Shown here: one piece after another, positions 2,268 to 58,450 of the stretch
How positions within the stretch are numbered: position 1 is the stretch's first letter
Layout of the letters: the number at the start of each line of letters is the position of its first letter
Sequence record: MK295204
Source: Shigella phage vB_SdyM_006
Direction: 5' to 3' (one strand)
DNA: 64,000 nt
Notes under the pieces: model-generated
Told to the model about the DNA's origin: nothing
The model's input: only the letters and a program-made list of their open reading frames with translations
The model's database searches: none
Program-made: the position numbers and the translations under genes

Positions 2268-2498
2268 TTAATCAAAAAAGTCTTGACGTTTTTCTAGTAG
2301 TTTACGAGCACCAAATAACGCATCTTCGATAGTAGTACCAAATTCTACCACGCATTCTTTGTTATCATTATAGACTTTAACTTCATATCCAATTAATTCG
2401 ACATAAAACGTCATCATTTCATAAATGGGAAGTACGGAGACTTCCCGTACTTTTCCTTTAAACCAAAAACCAACTTCACTTGTCATGATTTCATCCAT
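2268..2498 (-). CDS. hypothetical protein
   Basis: 76 aa ORF, ATG start, overlaps stop of topoisomerase gene (translational coupling). Confidence 0.35.
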   Translation of the reverse strand: MDEIMTSEVGFWFKGKVREVSVLPIYEMMTFYVELIGYEVKVYNDNKECVVEFGTTIEDALFGARKLLEKRQDFFD

Positions 2499-4306
2499 TC
2501 TTTTCTAAGCTCTGCATTATCACCAAATAACATTTCAAAAAGTTCTTTATAATTATCAGGCAGCTCAACAACGTCGTATACCGGTTTTTTAAGAACACGT
2601 TCGTATTCTTCAGAAGTTAATGACGCAAGCCCTTTAATATATCTAGGAGAACTCCAACCTTTTAATTTCGGTTTTTCTTTTTCGTATTCTTCAGCATTAT
2701 AATACCATTTTTGTTCTTTACCTTTTTGGATAATAATTAAAGGTGTTTTACAAAAACGGATTCTTTGTTCTTTATACAGTTCTGGCCATTTAGCAAAAAA
2801 TGCTAATAATGAAGGATAAATTGAACCTTGGCCATCGACATCGGCATCCGTCATAATAGCTATATTATCATACATTAAATTTTCAGGTTTTTCGCCAAGA
2901 ACAAGTCCTGTAATAGCCATGATATCAAATGCTTCTTTACTAGCCATAATATCAACATCTTTCATACCCCAAGTATTTAAAAATTTACCACGTAATGGAT
3001 AACCACCTTGTGTATCTTGGTCTCGAGATGTTAATAATTCATTTAAAGCAGAATCACCTTCTGTTAAAAACAGAGTAGTACCAGTTCCAGGTTTTCCATA
3101 TAAGTTAGCTTTAATATGTTTTGCAACTTTAGCCTTAGCAGCTTTTTTTGCTGCTTTTGTAGCCGCAGCCTGTTCAGCAGCAAGTTTACGTGCTAATACT
3201 GCTTCAATAATTGGCATTAAAACCGCTTCATTTCTCATTAACTGAGAAGCTAATTTTTTAACGTCAATATCGACATGGTTTTTAACTTCACCCCATGTAT
3301 TTGATAATCGTTCTTTTGTTTGACTATCAAACTTAAGATTACTCATATCACGAACAAATAAAAGTAGTGTCAAACATTCTTTAATTCGAGCTTTTGTGAT
3401 ATCAATTTTAAACTTACGCTTAATCATAGGCATAAGTTCAGTACATAATTCGTCCATCAACCAATCAACATGAGAGCCACCTTTTTTAGTATGGATATTA
3501 TTAACATAAGAGATATGTCTGAATCCATCAGGTGAGCGTCCAATGGCGACAGAGCAATTAGTTTGGTCTAAGACAATAGATTCTTCATCAAACTGTTTAG
3601 AATACTTCTTGAAGTTCCCTACGACTTTCTTACCATTAAATTTAAATTCAATATCAGGAAATACAACAGCTAGTGTCATTAAACGGTCAAGTGTCACATT
3701 TTTATATACATCAGATAAACTTGTATCATCAAAATGTTCAAAATCTGGAACAAATTTTACTTCTGTTCCGTGATAAGATGCTTTTTTAGTTTTCCATGAA
3801 ATATTTTCTGCACCGTCAGTACAATTAACTGTAATTTCTGTTTCGCCATTACAAGTCACACCAACAAATAATGTAGAGAAAATATTTGTTAACGCAGAAC
3901 CAACACCATTCATCCCACCAGTTTTACGTTCCGAGTCATCGCCAAAATTACCGCCAGCTCGAGGACGTGTCCATGCAGCAACAGGACCTGGGATTTCATC
4001 ACCTTCAGGAGTTAAGACTAAAGCCTGTGGTAATCCGCGACCATTATCTTTAACAGTTACAGTATCATTTTCGATAGAAACTTCAATTTTATTAGCGAAT
4101 TTAAAATTAGTTCTAATAGCTTCATCTACTGAGTTATCAATAATTTCGTCTATAATCTTAACAATACCAGGAACATATTTTATAGTGGTATACTCACCAA
4201 ACAAAAATTGTTCATTATTTTCTGATGATGAAGAACCAATATACATCCCAGAACGTTTAATGATATGTTCACGGTCACTTAAAATTTTAATTTCGTGTTT
4301 ATTCAT
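2483..4306 (-). CDS. 39: DNA topoisomerase II large subunit (gp39 with gp60-equivalent C-terminus fused)
   Basis: 607 aa; MNKHEIKILSDREHIIKRSGMYIGSS, GyrB-like ATPase motifs (DNGRGLP, GGMNGVGS), close to remembered T4 gp39; continuous ORF covering the region split into 39 and 60 in T4. Confidence 0.85.
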   Translation of the reverse strand: MNKHEIKILSDREHIIKRSGMYIGSSSSENNEQFLFGEYTTIKYVPGIVKIIDEIIDNSVDEAIRTNFKFANKIEVSIENDTVTVKDNGRGLPQALVLTPEGDEIPGPVAAWTRPRAGGNFGDDSERKTGGMNGVGSALTNIFSTLFVGVTCNGETEITVNCTDGAENISWKTKKASYHGTEVKFVPDFEHFDDTSLSDVYKNVTLDRLMTLAVVFPDIEFKFNGKKVVGNFKKYSKQFDEESIVLDQTNCSVAIGRSPDGFRHISYVNNIHTKKGGSHVDWLMDELCTELMPMIKRKFKIDITKARIKECLTLLLFVRDMSNLKFDSQTKERLSNTWGEVKNHVDIDVKKLASQLMRNEAVLMPIIEAVLARKLAAEQAAATKAAKKAAKAKVAKHIKANLYGKPGTGTTLFLTEGDSALNELLTSRDQDTQGGYPLRGKFLNTWGMKDVDIMASKEAFDIMAITGLVLGEKPENLMYDNIAIMTDADVDGQGSIYPSLLAFFAKWPELYKEQRIRFCKTPLIIIQKGKEQKWYYNAEEYEKEKPKLKGWSSPRYIKGLASLTSEEYERVLKKPVYDVVELPDNYKELFEMLFGDNAELRKEWMKS

Positions 4307-39718: not shown

Positions 39719-40195
39719 CTAGTTATAGTTAACCCATTTATTATTAATTTTTCTATACATTTTTTGATTATCTGAACCACGATAAGGCTTATCAGTTGGT
39801 TTAGTATAGTCATACTTTCCATCTATAATAACATCAACATACTCTAAAAGCTCTAAGGCTTCTTCTGGGATATCATTAAATTCATATCCGGTCCAAAGCC
39901 ATACATCTTTCCCTGTTTGTTCTTTAACTTTTTTACAGATATCAATAACGGATTTAATGTTAGAACGATACAAAGGGTCGCCGCCTGTGATTGTTAAACC
40001 TTTAATATATGATTTATTAACCATAGAGATTAAATCGTCTAGAGTTGATTCTGTGAACTCCTGTCCATTACGCTGGTTCCAAGTAGACTTGTTATAGCAT
40101 TGTTCACATTTATGAGAACATCCAGTAACAAAAAGGACCGTTCTAAATCCTTCGCCGTTTAAAGAATCACATGGGACAAGTGATGCATAATTCAT
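39719..40195 (-). CDS. nrdG: anaerobic ribonucleotide reductase activating protein NrdG (radical SAM)
   Basis: Start moved to ATG at 40195 (GGAG Shine-Dalgarno); MNYASLVPCD...FVTGCSHKCEQCYN (CxxxCxxC), GGDPLY; matches T4 NrdG. Confidence 0.8.
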   Translation of the reverse strand: MNYASLVPCDSLNGEGFRTVLFVTGCSHKCEQCYNKSTWNQRNGQEFTESTLDDLISMVNKSYIKGLTITGGDPLYRSNIKSVIDICKKVKEQTGKDVWLWTGYEFNDIPEEALELLEYVDVIIDGKYDYTKPTDKPYRGSDNQKMYRKINNKWVNYN

Positions 40196-40209
40196 TTTAT
40201 TCTCCATAC

Positions 40210-40231
40210 CAAAAAGGACCCGAAGGTCCTT
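40210..40231 (-). terminator. intrinsic terminator hairpin (identical to 4674-4694 element)
   Basis: aaaaaggacccgaaggtcctt; U-run on minus strand; upstream of nrdG start. Confidence 0.6.
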
Positions 40232-40233
40232 AA

Positions 40234-40566
40234 TTAACAATAAGCGTAGCATTCATTAGATTTTTTCTTATATACAGAATCACTATTTGTCCAGTCAACA
40301 TCTTCGGGGTCAAAATAACATTCTGCATCTTCATATGAACTTTCTAATCTAAGAGCTTTATGGGCAATTAGACGTTTGTCAGAACGAGATATTTTAGCTT
40401 GAACATTTTTAACTTCGGAAGAGATTCCTTTCCAACGTTTAGGTTTATCAGAGTGAAAAATATTATTTGATACTTCTGTTTGACAGATATTACCACGTGG
40501 TTTTCTTGAAGTAACATCATAATAACCATTATTTTTAACAGTTTTTCTTCTAATAGTTTTACCCAT
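40234..40566 (-). CDS. hypothetical basic protein
   Basis: 110 aa, ATG start. Confidence 0.35.
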   Translation of the reverse strand: MGKTIRRKTVKNNGYYDVTSRKPRGNICQTEVSNNIFHSDKPKRWKGISSEVKNVQAKISRSDKRLIAHKALRLESSYEDAECYFDPEDVDWTNSDSVYKKKSNECYAYC

Positions 40567-41084: not shown

Positions 41085-42956
41085 TTAGTCTAATTTATCA
41101 TTTAATATTGGTTTAGCAATATGTTTTGTTCTATGGATAACTTCTTTTTGTTTACCTTCGTTAAACCCACGAGAAGCAGGATTTCCAAGATATCCACAGG
41201 TACGACGGACAACAGACATTTTCTTTACATCCATTTCACCACATTTTGGACATTTAAACCCATTTTCTGTAGGAATAAATTCTCCATGGAATTCACATGT
41301 AAAGCATTGGTCAACAGGAGTATTTGTTCCAAAATAATCTAGATTTTCTACAGCATAATCCCAGACCTGTTCTAATGCATCAAGATTATCCTTCATATTA
41401 GGGAGCTCAACATAAGAAATATGACCACCAGATGCAATACGGTGATAATCCTTTTCAAATTCAATTTTCTCAAATGGATTAACTTTACGTTCAACATCAA
41501 GATGGAAACTATTTGTGTACCAACCTTTATCTGTAATTCCTTTAACAGAACCAAATTCTGCTTTATCTAATTTGCAGAATCTGTGACATAAACTTTCTGC
41601 GGGAGTAGAATAAAGACTAAATGCATATCCAGTTTCTTCTTTCCATTTAGAAAGATAATAATTTATTTCTTTAAGAATATGTTTACCAAATTCTTGGGCT
41701 TCTTTATTATCAAATGGTTCATCATTAAAAATCAGTTTTAATGTTTCGTGTAAACCAATATATCCTAGCGAAATAGAACTTCGTCCATTTTTAAATAATG
41801 ATAATATTTCGTCATTAGGGTTCATACGAACACCAAAAGCGCCACCACAATATAAAATTGGAGCTACAGAAGCTTTTGCACCACGTAAAGAATCAATTCT
41901 AGTCATAAGAGCAGTATAACAGAGGCCAAGACGATCTCTCAATGATTGGATATATGATTCTTTAGATAAATTGTCACTACCTAATTCCAGGGCTATTCTA
42001 GGAAGATTTAATGTGACTACACCTAGATTATTGCGTCCATCTAAAATTTCTTTGCCATTTTCTTTATAGACACTTAAAAAAGATCTACACCCCATAGGAG
42101 AAACTGGGACCGAACTACCGGTTATTTCTTTATTAATTTTAGACGAAATAATATCTGGGTACATTCTTTTAGCTGAACATTCTAATGCTAATTTTTTAAT
42201 AAAATAATTAGGGTCTTCAGGTTTAAGATTAATTCCTTCTTCAATAAAGAAGACTAATTTAGGAAATATCGCAGTTACTTCATCTTTGCCTAAGCCTTTA
42301 ATTCTATTTTTAAGAATAGCTTCTTGGATAACTGTGCCGGCCCATGAAGTAGAAGTTCCAAAAGAAATAGTCACAAATGGCGTTTGTCCATTAGAGCTAA
42401 AAAGCGTATTTATTTCATATTCATACGCTTGGAAAGCGTCATAAACATCTTTTTCTGTCTTCTTCATAGCATAATCTTCCCAATCAGGAATACGCCATTC
42501 AAAAGCTTCATTAAGATGTTTTTGGTATGTAGCTTCTACGTAAGGCTCAAGAACAACATCAACATTTGCAAATGTTGTTCCACCATATTGATGAGAAGCA
42601 ACTTGGGCTGTGACTTGGGCCATAATTGCACAAGCTACACCAATTGATTTAGGTGTTTCTATTTCCGCGTTACCAAGCTTAAATCCATTTTCAAACATGC
42701 CTTTTAAATCAACTAAACAACAATTTGTAAAAGGCAGTGATACACTATAATCTAAGTCATGATAATGAATAATACCTTTGTCGTGTGCTTCTACGACATT
42801 AGAAGGCAATCTACTACGAGCCACGTACTTGGAAGCAATTCCGGCCAGTAAGTCACGTTGAGTAGGAAAGACACCATAGGGCTTGTTTGCATTTTCTGTA
42901 GAAAGTTCATTTGATTCACGATTACATACCTCATTAATTTGAGAAATTAAGTTCAT
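41085..42956 (-). CDS. nrdD: anaerobic ribonucleoside-triphosphate reductase NrdD (glycyl radical enzyme)
   Basis: 623 aa; C-terminal zinc ribbon CFTCEF...CPKCG and glycyl radical motif RRTCGYLG; continuous ORF (no intron). Confidence 0.85.
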   Translation of the reverse strand: MNLISQINEVCNRESNELSTENANKPYGVFPTQRDLLAGIASKYVARSRLPSNVVEAHDKGIIHYHDLDYSVSLPFTNCCLVDLKGMFENGFKLGNAEIETPKSIGVACAIMAQVTAQVASHQYGGTTFANVDVVLEPYVEATYQKHLNEAFEWRIPDWEDYAMKKTEKDVYDAFQAYEYEINTLFSSNGQTPFVTISFGTSTSWAGTVIQEAILKNRIKGLGKDEVTAIFPKLVFFIEEGINLKPEDPNYFIKKLALECSAKRMYPDIISSKINKEITGSSVPVSPMGCRSFLSVYKENGKEILDGRNNLGVVTLNLPRIALELGSDNLSKESYIQSLRDRLGLCYTALMTRIDSLRGAKASVAPILYCGGAFGVRMNPNDEILSLFKNGRSSISLGYIGLHETLKLIFNDEPFDNKEAQEFGKHILKEINYYLSKWKEETGYAFSLYSTPAESLCHRFCKLDKAEFGSVKGITDKGWYTNSFHLDVERKVNPFEKIEFEKDYHRIASGGHISYVELPNMKDNLDALEQVWDYAVENLDYFGTNTPVDQCFTCEFHGEFIPTENGFKCPKCGEMDVKKMSVVRRTCGYLGNPASRGFNEGKQKEVIHRTKHIAKPILNDKLD

Positions 42957-55083: not shown

Positions 55084-55499
55084 AATTTAATTACCTTTGT
55101 TGAAATTTTAGATGATAAACGTGTTGGATTAACTATAGCCATACGACATGTTAATCCATATGTTCCCTGTGTTCCTTCAGATGAAGTGAATCCAATCCAT
55201 AGTTTCCCATCTGTAATTTCTAACCTAGTAGGTCTATATTCGATATTAGGGTCTGGATTTTCTATAGGCATATCAGGCAATTTACAGTAGTCTAAAATAG
55301 ATTCCTTTGCCTGATATAATTTATTTAATAGACTAAAAATATCACTTAACGGAATTCCACGTTCTAAAGTCCTGTCAATAATATGACTTTGGAATTTAAT
55401 ATGGAACCCAGCGTTTTCTTGATTTAATTTTGAGTTAATTTCTGAGAAAGCATCAGCGAACTTCCTACGTGCTTTGGCTCGTTCTACATGAATGTTCAT
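55080..55499 (-). CDS. regB: endoribonuclease RegB
   Basis: 139 aa; ...IEYRPTRLEITDGKLWIGFT...CRMAIVNPTRLSSKISTKVIKF matches remembered T4 RegB. Confidence 0.75.
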   Translation of the reverse strand: MNIHVERAKARRKFADAFSEINSKLNQENAGFHIKFQSHIIDRTLERGIPLSDIFSLLNKLYQAKESILDYCKLPDMPIENPDPNIEYRPTRLEITDGKLWIGFTSSEGTQGTYGLTCRMAIVNPTRLSSKISTKVIKF

Positions 55500-55897
55500 T
55501 AAATAGTCTCCAATTTTTTACCATAAAACTTATACCAATCAGGTTTTTGAGCGATTTTTTCATCTAATCTTGATTTAGATAAAGATATATCGTCTTCAGA
55601 CGGTGTATAATCATTATACCATTCTTTAGGAAAAATGAAATCAATTTTTTCAAAAGAAATGTTAAAGCCACGTTTTTTACATTCTTGGACTATCTGTTGT
55701 TGGCGAATTTCTAAAAATTTGAGTTTGTTATAAAAGAATTTGACATGACCTGTACCAAGGACGTAGTTGGCAGGAATTTTGACTGGTTTACCAAAAGCTT
55801 TTAAAGCCAAAGTAAACACACGTGGAAGTTCGCGATATTCAGCGATGAGATGTTGATCGGTAAGAAGTGCTGGGTCTAAAAGATTAATACGTGTCAT
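55499..55897 (-). CDS. denV: endonuclease V (pyrimidine dimer DNA glycosylase) DenV
   Basis: 132 aa; MTRINL...DQHLIAEYRELPRVF...GTGHVKFFYNKLKFL...RLDEKIAQKPDWYKFYG matches remembered T4 DenV. Confidence 0.85.
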   Translation of the reverse strand: MTRINLLDPALLTDQHLIAEYRELPRVFTLALKAFGKPVKIPANYVLGTGHVKFFYNKLKFLEIRQQQIVQECKKRGFNISFEKIDFIFPKEWYNDYTPSEDDISLSKSRLDEKIAQKPDWYKFYGKKLETI

Positions 55898-55949
55898 ATA
55901 TCCTCCATTAATTTAAGAATATACTAACACGTATTTTTATTAAAGTAAA

Positions 55950-56318
55950 CTAAATTGTATCAGTAAATGTTCTGTTAATTACATCTTCTTTCTGTTCATC
56001 AGTTAAAGAATTAAATCTAACAGCGTATCCAGAAACTCGGATAGTTAACTGTGGGTATTTTTCTGGATTTTCTCTTGCGTCTAATAACATTTCTTTGTTC
56101 AATACATTAACATTTAGATGCTGGCCACCTTCGATTCGTGGAGCAAATTCTAAAGCTAAATCTTTTTGAGTAGAATTACCAAATGAAGTCATTGGAACAA
56201 CTTCATCTTCTTTAAAATATTTTGATGCTAAAATTCTACAATTATTTGTTTCTGTATCTACTAAAAAGATTGTTCCATAAAAAGGACCAGAAACAAGTTG
56301 TCTTGCTTGAATTGACAT
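55950..56318 (-). CDS. autonomous glycyl radical cofactor (GrcA/YfiD-like; T4 Y06I-type)
   Basis: 122 aa; [11 protein letters not shown]...[34 protein letters not shown] nearly identical in pattern to E. coli GrcA glycyl-radical domain. Confidence 0.85.
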
Positions 56319-56482
56319 TATTTTACCTCGTACATGTATGGATTAGTATCGTTAATATCTTTAACAAATCCATAGAATTTTTTATTGACATATAATGCAA
56401 TAGCATTTTTATGTTGGACCCATGCTAAATTATATAACTTATCAGAATTACCAAACGCACCTTTAGCTTCATTTAAAATCAT
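56318..56482 (-). CDS. hypothetical small protein (not in ORF track, 54 aa)
   Basis: Hand-translated [54 protein letters not shown]; TAATG coupling to GrcA-like gene. Confidence 0.25.
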
Positions 56483-56484
56483 AA

Positions 56485-56973
56485 TCAACACCCAATAAAA
56501 TATATAATAGGATAATAGCCAGTAAAAGCTATTGTACTTGTTAAAGCATCAATAAAATCAAAAGTGTTAAGTCCCATAGGTTCTTCAATAATAAAAATTG
56601 GAGAATTTAAACAACGGCCTCTAAAACGATTATGCCAACTTGGATTGGATAATGCTCTTCTGGAAGCTTTAATAAACTCTACACTTTTAATAGGTTTAAT
56701 GCCTGTCTTTTCAACATGGCCATTATATTTTAGTTTTGTGTCTAAAGCAGTATGCCCGATAATAAAAATATCTCTATGTGGATTTCTTAGTTTTTGTTCT
56801 AAAGCAAATTCTGATATTTGAGTAGATTTGTAAGTTTGACGTCCAAAATCAAGTTTGCATTGACGATATTCATAAACTACACTAAATATTGAACGTGTTA
56901 CCGTCCTCATTTTATTAGTATCATTTGCTTCACATTTATCTAAAAATTGTGTCATTAAATCATAGTAGTTCAT
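56485..56973 (-). CDS. hypothetical protein
   Basis: 162 aa, ATG start. Confidence 0.35.
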   Translation of the reverse strand: MNYYDLMTQFLDKCEANDTNKMRTVTRSIFSVVYEYRQCKLDFGRQTYKSTQISEFALEQKLRNPHRDIFIIGHTALDTKLKYNGHVEKTGIKPIKSVEFIKASRRALSNPSWHNRFRGRCLNSPIFIIEEPMGLNTFDFIDALTSTIAFTGYYPIIYFIGC

Positions 56974-57164
56974 TTGTTTCTCCTAATGGCCTTACTAGAT
57001 GAAATAGTAAGGCGTAGTGATAATTTAAGTTAAAATAGCCTTTTCTAATATTTCTGCTTTGGTCCAAGTAATGCCAAAACATTCCATTGGCGTTTTATCG
57101 TTAGTAAATAAATTGTTTACTAGTTGTTTGCACTCAATTTCTATGAGTTTTAAATCGGTTTCTG

Positions 57165-57347
57165 TCATAGATTTACTTCTTTAATTACAATTTTTTCGCT
57201 ATACCCAGGATAATCACATTTAATATAACTATCTTGGGATAATTTACTTTCAAACATCCAATCTTCTAATTGTTGTTCACCAGAACATGACATAAAGGCC
57301 ATAAACGATTCGGCTAAATGGTCATCAATCTCTATAGTAATTTGCAT
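57165..57347 (-). CDS. hypothetical acidic small protein
   Basis: 60 aa, ATG start. Confidence 0.3.
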   Translation of the reverse strand: MQITIEIDDHLAESFMAFMSCSGEQQLEDWMFESKLSQDSYIKCDYPGYSEKIVIKEVNL

Positions 57348-57348
57348 A

Positions 57349-57720
57349 TTATCTCTTTAATTGGAAATGAGGACCATCTTTAAATGTTTTCCAATCACCA
57401 CCCCATTCTATAGCAATACCAAGTTCATTTGCTGCTTGTTTCATTGCTTTGGCAACGAGTTCAAATTTAGACCAATCTTGCCATGGGATAGCTTTATTAA
57501 CTAATGGTCCTAAGTCTACGGCTTCACCTGTCAAATGATAAGAATTCATAGTTTTAGAAACGCCTTTTCGGACATTTTCTTTTTGCTGTTCTACCGAACG
57601 TAGGCCTTCAATAACCATAAAATCTATCTCGGTTATTTGAATTGCTCGCTCTACAACTTTAACAAGCTCAGGTTTAACGCCTTTTAATCTATCTTTTGAT
57701 CTTTGTGATAATACGTACAT
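57349..57720 (-). CDS. endolysin, L-alanyl-D-glutamate peptidase (peptidase M15C)
   Basis: 123 aa; NSYHLTGEAVDL (SxHxxGxAxD) and DGPHFQL (zinc ligands) as in T5-type M15 endolysin; replaces T4 e-lysozyme in this region. Confidence 0.65.
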   Translation of the reverse strand: MYVLSQRSKDRLKGVKPELVKVVERAIQITEIDFMVIEGLRSVEQQKENVRKGVSKTMNSYHLTGEAVDLGPLVNKAIPWQDWSKFELVAKAMKQAANELGIAIEWGGDWKTFKDGPHFQLKR

Positions 57721-57759
57721 AAGTTTCTCCTTTGTTTGCTTATGTACGTATTTATTAAA

Positions 57760-58209
57760 TTAGAAATCCTTATATCCTGGTGATAATTCACTAAGCATGT
57801 CTAAAAAGTGTTTAGAATCTGCAGCTAGCTCATCTTTGTTAACAGCCAATAGAATTGGTTCATTAAGTAGATTATACTTTTTAACCATTGCTTTAAAATA
57901 TGCTAAAAGATGATTATCAGTTTTTACTGATACATGGATATCGTCATCATAAGAATCAAACCCGTCATCATAAGTAGTATATCCATAAATGGTAAATACA
58001 ACATTTTTTAATTCTTCTAAAGGATTTTCTACATCAGGGAAATGCTTAGTTAATAAAGGTTTTAGACTTTCGCCATAAGAAGCAAGCACTTTATCTGTTA
58101 GTTCTAAAGTAATCTCACATTCAACCATGTCGTGTTTAATTCGTCCACCTTCTTCAAAATCACCAACTTCAGCAATTAAATCAAATAGTTCTTTATCGTT
58201 AATAATCAT
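57760..58209 (-). CDS. hypothetical acidic protein
   Basis: 149 aa, ATG start. Confidence 0.3.
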   Translation of the reverse strand: MIINDKELFDLIAEVGDFEEGGRIKHDMVECEITLELTDKVLASYGESLKPLLTKHFPDVENPLEELKNVVFTIYGYTTYDDGFDSYDDDIHVSVKTDNHLLAYFKAMVKKYNLLNEPILLAVNKDELAADSKHFLDMLSELSPGYKDF

Positions 58210-58450
58210 TTTGTTTCCTTAAAATAGATGTACCATAATTAATATAATAAACATCATCTTTGTCTAAGCAACAGGTTCCAATAAAAATCTTATGGGTACA
58301 AGATTGCAATGAAGCTAATGCTTCTTTAAATGTTATTGCATTAACTACAGCAAGTTCATTTGTTAAGATGGTATGATTGCCTACATAAGCAAAATCATAT
58401 TCACTATTATTGATGACCCTAATAATAGTTGTTGGATGTATTTCGGTCAT
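58199..58450 (-). CDS. hypothetical protein
   Basis: 83 aa, ATG start. Confidence 0.3.
   Translation of the reverse strand: MTEIHPTTIIRVINNSEYDFAYVGNHTILTNELAVVNAITFKEALASLQSCTHKIFIGTCCLDKDDVYYINYGTSILRKQNDY

Follow-up and report, generated by a model that had tools for sequence, protein, structure and literature searches.

The 122-aa product of a minus-strand gene in the stretch of DNA analysed here (64,000 nucleotides of record MK295204, Shigella phage vB_SdyM_006; hereafter the window) is, by homology, a stand-alone glycyl-radical protein of the GrcA/YfiD type (family IPR011140/TIGR04365). Our overall reading, which we hold with good confidence from sequence comparison and from analogy with characterized proteins, is that this protein would be the Bragavirus ortholog of T4 vs.6/Y06I, a spare part of the GrcA (YfiD) type, and that the 54-aa gene coupled to it on the upstream side would be an independent one. 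The grcA gene is as such a known gene and an ordinary finding, homologs of GrcA having been known in phages since 2001.

Genomic setting

A megablast search with positions 55400..57100 of the window retrieved the Proteus phage phiP4-3 (NC_055737; Straboviridae, Bragavirus) at 98.4% DNA identity over the full query, together with matches of 80–85% to the T4-like Proteus phages PM2, vB_PmiM_Pm5461 and SJ_PmiM. Judged from these matches, the window is that of a Proteus T4-like phage of the Bragavirus type. Every gene around grcA is carried by the minus strand. In the order of transcription, grcA is preceded by a nudix hydrolase, an M15-type endolysin, two small ORFs, a 162-aa ORF and the 54-aa ORF, and is followed by denV, regB, a vs.1-like transglycosylase, vs and then tk. 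The vs.8-like 162-aa gene, the 54-aa gene and grcA form a tightly packed block, of which grcA is the last member (Table 1). The endolysin gene, which occupies the position of T4 gene e (57349..57720, minus strand), encodes a protein of the Peptidase_M15_4 family (L-alanyl-D-glutamate peptidase type) and not a T4-type lysozyme.

One copy of the T4 late-promoter motif TATAAATA is present in the 64-kb window, as compared with 16.6 expected from shuffles, and none was found near grcA. This strong avoidance across the window is consistent with a region of early/middle genes; the 54-aa ORF is an early gene. A generic promoter/terminator scan of positions 55400..58400 gave fewer hits than shuffled sequences and no signal dedicated to grcA.

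Two conserved elements flank the block. On its 5′ side, a hairpin of the form GCCTTACTA-TTTCATC-TAGTAAGGC lies in the 51-nt spacer that separates a 47-aa ORF from the vs.8-like gene, a few bases before the AGGAG ribosome-binding site of the latter. Six of its 12 pairs show compensatory changes in an RNAalifold analysis of five sequences, and the hairpin is the probable 5′ limit of the three-gene block. Since it is not followed by a U-tract, it may be an element of RNA stability or processing rather than a terminator. On the 3′ side, grcA and denV are separated by a 52-nt spacer, with 94% conservation across five phages, in which a T4-early-type promoter-like element for denV is found. In this element, GTTTAC, which shares bases with the stop codon of grcA, is separated by 18 nt from TGT-TAGTAT, a sequence that reads TGT-TATATT in relatives. 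In the Pm5461 record, a 'promoter' is annotated at the site corresponding to window positions 55919..55926; a generic sigma-70 scan gave the element no score.

Table 1. Features of the window discussed in the text (all on the minus strand)
Feature	Position	Strand	Basis
NrdG, radical-SAM activase of NrdD	39719..40252	-	
NrdD, anaerobic ribonucleotide reductase	41085..42956	-	
T4-early-type promoter-like element for denV, immediately following grcA	55921..55950	-	Conserved spacer, Pm5461 annotation
grcA (T4 vs.6/Y06I homolog), predicted 122-aa autonomous glycyl-radical cofactor	55950..56318	-	ATG-to-TAG ORF, family matches
Gly97 codon (GGA), predicted radical site in RVSGYAVRF	56028..56030	-	phmmer alignment, invariant in phage alignment
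54-aa orphan gene (phrog_22759), TAATG-coupled to grcA	56318..56482	-	Conserved in Bragavirus relatives
GAGG Shine-Dalgarno of grcA, lying within the final codons of the 54-aa gene	56326..56329	-	Conserved sequence
162-aa T4 vs.8 homolog (phrog_1488)	56485..56973	-	PHROG match over residues 1-162, E 1.4e-37
Conserved hairpin, 51-nt spacer upstream of the vs.8-like gene	56989..57013	-	RNAalifold, five Bragavirus sequences

Identity of the glycyl-radical protein

A sequence-only reading of the window had proposed a GrcA-type match at the position of grcA; this is borne out by an exact 122-codon ORF on the minus strand, a detail that the reading had not given. The protein matches the Pfam family PF01228 (Gly_radical) with 62 bits (E 8.8e-17; gathering score 22.2). 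In phmmer comparisons, its residues 4–121 align with residues 6–126 of E. coli GrcA (PDB 6OWR, chain 6owr_A; E 3.2e-33), and its residues 56–121 align with the C-terminus of E. coli PflB without a gap over 66 residues (E 2.2e-28). The outcome named beforehand as speaking against the assignment was a missing radical glycine. Gly97 is present; it stands opposite G102 of GrcA and G734 of PflB, in the latter case in an ungapped alignment, and is invariant across the phage homologs. The protein likewise proved homologous to T4 Y06I when the two were aligned, as the same reading had suggested they should be. Orthologs in phiP4-3, PM2 and Pm5461 bear the RefSeq name 'autonomous glycyl radical cofactor GrcA', and the phiP4-3 protein is 99.2% identical to that of the window.

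TIGR04365, the GrcA equivalog of NCBIfam, is the best NCBIfam model for the protein (144.6 bits, residues 14–121). Its curated cut-off of 170 bits lies above the score of the window protein and also above that of the validated T4 vs.6/Y06I (151.1 bits), which indicates that the cut-off excludes phage members of the family.

The gene encodes a stand-alone protein, with its own ATG and its own Shine-Dalgarno sequence; the preceding gene is unrelated and lies in a different frame. Five aligned phage homologs are nearly invariant in a core that extends from E63 to T106. Among Bragaviruses, the dN/dS of grcA is 0.03–0.06, a constraint stronger than that on denV, and on this sequence evidence the gene is under strong purifying selection.

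The two halves of the protein differ in their likeness to host enzymes. Over its last 61 residues, it shares 85% identity with the near-invariant C-terminus of PflB in Enterobacterales (Providencia and Xenorhabdus, both Morganellaceae, among them), as compared with 77–78%, depending on the alignment, for the corresponding part of E. coli GrcA. The C-terminal signature N-K-E-M-L-L-D-A-x-E-N-P is of the PflB type (NREMLLDAMENP), unlike that of E. coli GrcA (RRETLEDAVKHP). A bacterial GrcA, that of Thalassotalea, carries the same PflB-type signature, with a C-terminal identity of 88–89%. The N-terminal half is 29% identical to that of E. coli GrcA and 17–43% identical to those of other homologs outside the genus. 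It is nevertheless a GrcA-type half, sharing the motifs R-I/C-x-x-x-K and EDEVV, and it displays a phage-type indel pattern and a G..GTI motif. Over the full length, the best bacterial GrcA is that of Vibrio (59%), others reaching ~50% and that of Arsenophonus 52%, among 80 loci listed, none of which is from Proteus.

Comparison with T4, E. coli GrcA and PflB

The T4 homolog Y06I is the product of gene vs.6 according to the T4 annotation; T4 tk.4, which had been considered as the GrcA homolog, is a phosphatase-like protein. The vs.6 and window proteins are both stand-alone, 120–122 aa long and 54–56% identical (depending on the alignment), with the same invariant core, and they share phage-type N-terminal motifs (G..GTI and R-I-x-x-SK) as well as the indel pattern. 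Both genes lie in the early hyperplastic region between endolysin and tk, downstream of a vs.8 homolog. The gene order differs, being denV, vs.8, vs.7, vs.6, vs.5 in T4 and vs.8-like gene, 54-aa orphan, grcA, denV in the window. The N-terminal halves of the two proteins are only 34% identical and, whereas vs.6 differs from E. coli GrcA at two of the last 60 positions, the window protein has the PflB-type signature instead.

E. coli GrcA/YfiD (6OWR) is homologous over its full length, with the radical glycine aligned; the phage protein is ~5 residues shorter, and its gene is part of a phage early-gene block, whereas the E. coli-type grcA is a stand-alone bacterial locus. The likeness to the 760-aa PflB is confined to the glycyl-radical domain (residues ~693–759), to which the ungapped 66-residue alignment extends. 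Since the phage protein contains neither the catalytic barrel nor the Cys418/Cys419 site of PflB, it could serve only as a replacement part.

GrcA homologs are present in 1,582 of the phage records searched by tblastn (database of 50,697). Their carriers are T4-like, T5-like and jumbo phages of Escherichia, Salmonella, Klebsiella, Yersinia, Aeromonas and others. The Gly_radical match of the T4 homolog had already been noted in 2006 in a comparative study of T4-type genomes (PMC1524935). As for function, PMC8683613, which cites Wagner et al. (2001), names T4 Y06I and E. coli YfiD as the two validated spare parts for oxygen-cleaved pyruvate formate-lyase (PFL), both being radicalized by the PFL-activating enzyme (PFL-AE) and restoring the activity of cleaved PFL; what the sequence-only reading had stated about Y06I and the repair of damaged PFL was right. 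The same paper describes YfiD's N-terminal half as disordered, yet required for binding to cleaved PFL and for efficient activation, and has both proteins acting in vitro with PFL-AE and cleaved PFL sufficing and no third protein.

In T5-like phages of Salmonella and Escherichia (contigs of ~104–121 kb), the match to GrcA starts only at residue 30 or 56, so that the N-terminal half, which in YfiD is needed for binding to cleaved PFL, appears to be largely missing from these homologs.

The 54-aa gene

The coupled ORF upstream of grcA that the sequence-only reading had pointed out is present: its TAA stop codon (56320..56318) overlaps the ATG of grcA (56318..56316) as TAATG. The check on relatives that had been proposed for it also gave a positive answer, both the gene and the TAATG arrangement being kept in phiP4-3, PM2, Pm5461 and SJ_PmiM, where RefSeq/GenBank records call it a hypothetical protein. 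It is also called as a gene in independent metagenome assemblies. Its ATG lies 2 nt after the TGA of the upstream 162-aa gene, and an alternative GTG start three codons further upstream (57 aa) is not conserved in relatives. The Shine-Dalgarno sequence of grcA, CGAGGTAAAATAATG, is kept as (G/A)AGGTAAAATAATG in four of four relatives. The length of the family is fixed at 54 codons, 37 of the 54 residues are invariant, and the dN/dS is 0.13–0.43. Two plus-strand ORFs of the region, 56222..56395 and 56385..56498, were discarded as spurious on account of in-frame stops in relatives, one of the two being interrupted already in phiP4-3 and both in PM2, Pm5461 and SJ_PmiM.

By tblastn, homologs of the 54-aa ORF were found in seven Proteus-phage records only (of the 50,697 phage records), and the family comprises two clusters in a database of 5.8 billion protein clusters; a profile search of 1.84 billion cluster representatives retrieved its own cluster only. 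For one of the two clusters (P0002), the contigs examined have the same arrangement of a 163-aa gene, the 54-aa gene, GrcA, denV and regB, and homologs are confined to Bragavirus-type contigs. The ORF matches no family in Pfam or NCBIfam and, in PHROGs, only its own phrog_22759 of unknown function. BLASTP comparison with vs.5, with g134 and g136 of the Yersinia phage and with the Miro neighbours gave nothing. A structure model with one helix and four strands, of moderate confidence (mean pLDDT 66, pTM 0.45), had no Foldseek match in the PDB or BFVD at E ≤ 0.001. Taken on its conservation and distribution, the 54-aa ORF is a genuine gene and a genus-restricted orphan.

The vs.8-like gene and the position upstream of grcA

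T4 vs.8 itself matches phrog_1488 with an E-value of 1.3e-78 and is a member of the same PHROG as the 162-aa gene; in direct phmmer comparison, the latter matches T4 vs.8 with an E-value of 8e-4 and other vs.8 homologs with values down to 1e-10. Genes of this family lie upstream of grcA in ~14 of 80 IMG/VR loci. The order vs.8, small gene, grcA is common to T4 and Bragavirus, the middle gene being replaced non-homologously. The T4 occupant, vs.7 (phrog_2049), resembles the 54-aa gene in being a small early gene on the same strand, tightly packed in the slot between the vs.8 homolog and grcA. The two are 109 and 54 aa long, however, and belong to separate PHROGs. A vague likeness seen by eye between the 54-aa family and the C-terminal half of vs.7 had to be dismissed, as hhalign gave a probability of 1% (E 0.049 in a one-target comparison), the mark of a non-homologous replacement.

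Walker A (DGGRQSGK[ST]) and Walker B-like (IIIDEP/IIEEP) motifs are present in the vs.8 family, and T4 vs.8 weakly matches the ATPase of the terminase large subunit (phrog_2, 1.7e-5; Sf6 gp2, E 0.57). The Walker A motif reads FGRQTYKST in every Bragavirus copy, with Tyr for the glycine before the lysine, a substitution that suggests altered or lost nucleotide binding. In one T4-like IMG/VR contig of 163 kb, the vs.8 homolog upstream of grcA (2483..2991 in the extracted locus) is split into two overlapping ORFs, possibly by a frameshift or a sequencing error; this contig has no slot gene before grcA.

Discussion

By analogy with E. coli and T4, the phage protein would come into play after oxygen had cleaved activated host PFL at its radical glycine, G734, with loss of the C-terminal ~25 residues. 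Phage GrcA, with its PflB-like last 61 residues, would then dock into cleaved PflB, the host radical-SAM activase PflA would turn Gly97 into a glycyl radical, and the conversion of pyruvate to acetyl-CoA and formate would be restored. The phage region examined showed no pflA-like activase; activation would hence depend on the host enzyme. In line with fermentation in Enterobacterales generally, Proteus would be expected to have pflB and pflA; PflB was found in the related genera Providencia and Xenorhabdus, and none of the 80 GrcA loci listed was from Proteus. An own copy of GrcA might sustain fermentative energy and the supply of acetyl-CoA while a facultative anaerobe is infected under changing oxygen levels. 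T4-type phages shut down host gene expression, which may be why the phage carries a copy of its own.

An alternative destination for the protein is found in the window itself, which encodes both NrdD and NrdG: phage GrcA might serve this pair instead of host PFL, either as a spare NrdD domain or as a substrate or regulator of NrdG. A role in nucleotide metabolism was indeed proposed in an early comparative paper (PMC1524935). The gene neighbourhoods of some other phages would fit such a role, since the Yersinia jumbo phage fHe-Yen9-03 has its grcA homolog between nrdD and nrdG, and the match in Aeromonas phage PX29 overlaps annotated vs.6 and nrdG features, which are hence adjacent. In the window, however, grcA lies ~13 kb from nrdD (~13–16 kb from the nrdD/nrdG pair), and a comparison of phage GrcA with the NrdD encoded there gave no significant similarity (E 0.61), which makes a part in NrdD repair unlikely and leads us to reject the idea that GrcA mimics the C-terminus of phage NrdD. 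The strong C-terminal identity to PflB, together with the activation of T4 Y06I by PFL-AE and its complementation of cleaved PFL (PMC8683613), also argues for PFL as the partner enzyme, and we regard service to NrdD/NrdG as very improbable. The same likeness to PflB invites a further explanation, namely that grcA arose by recent capture or gene conversion of the 3′ end of host pflB and is perhaps a passenger with no selected function, its C-terminal signature being closer to PflB than to E. coli GrcA (85 versus 77% identity). Yet nucleotide identity between phage grcA and the 3′ ends of Morganellaceae pflB is 69–73%, and third codon positions are 31–43% identical, that is, saturated, which rules out a recent capture. 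The low dN/dS of grcA among Bragaviruses, moreover, is that of a long-maintained function, the N-terminal half is GrcA-like with phage-type indels, and the PflB-type signature also occurs in the bacterial GrcA of Thalassotalea. We give this origin next to no credence and retain the PFL spare part as the function of choice.

The relationship between grcA and the 54-aa gene has to be considered separately. Translational coupling could keep the 54-aa protein in a fixed ratio to GrcA as a dedicated partner, for instance a chaperone for GrcA's disordered N-terminal half or an adaptor to host PflA or cleaved PflB, as the sequence-only reading had surmised. The TAATG overlap and the adjacency are strictly kept in every Bragavirus-type contig, the 54-aa gene is under purifying selection, and its slot between the vs.8 homolog and grcA, which is also that of vs.7 in T4, could mark a functional position. 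Coupling as such is uninformative about partnership, because overlap is the commonest type of junction: of the 97 same-strand junctions in a 50-kb part of phiP4-3, 48 are overlaps, which measure exactly 1 nt in 13 cases and four in 22. The family is restricted to one genus, whereas the GrcA homologs of the 1,582 phage records have differing neighbours upstream: vs.8 and vs.7 in T4, RB-type and PG7-type phages, an unrelated 188-aa gene in Slopekvirus, an unrelated 103-aa gene in Yersinia jumbo phages (where grcA lies between nrdD and nrdG) and others again in T5-like phages. No homolog of the 54-aa protein was found upstream of grcA in T4, Miro or fHe-Yen9-03, and none among the 80 IMG/VR grcA loci outside the two Bragavirus genomes. 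The lack of homology to vs.7, the strong ribosome-binding site that grcA has of its own, the structure model devoid of a fold match and, according to PMC8683613, the in vitro activity of YfiD and Y06I with PFL-AE and cleaved PFL alone likewise speak against a partner. Such a partnership was the one proposal of the earlier reading that found no support, and we consider it unlikely, although the missing co-occurrence elsewhere is still compatible with an interaction specific to the genus. Most likely, the 54-aa protein is an independent small accessory protein and not a partner of GrcA.

Inherited synteny in a hyperplastic early region is the simplest explanation of the order vs.8, small gene, grcA. 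It is conceivable, but rather improbable, that the slot flanked by grcA and the vs.8-type P-loop-like gene is a functional position that has been filled by non-homologous small proteins. If this were true, vs.7 in T4 and the 54-aa orphan in Bragavirus would tune phage GrcA to host PflA/PflB, and vs.8, the variable gene and vs.6 would make up a three-gene module for PFL maintenance rather than a chance synteny.

Beyond correct annotation, the significance of these findings is small, and nothing changes in the understanding of the system. They do draw attention to the curated GrcA equivalog, whose cut-off leaves out the phage members, including the validated T4 protein. They also show that the gene next upstream of grcA has been swapped non-homologously between T4-like genera while the vs.8 homolog was retained, and that the radical domain of the Bragavirus lineage mimics PflB itself more closely than it does the spare part of E. 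coli. The window would thereby provide a tidy example of a phage of a urinary/gut pathogen that carries a repair part for a fermentation enzyme of its host.
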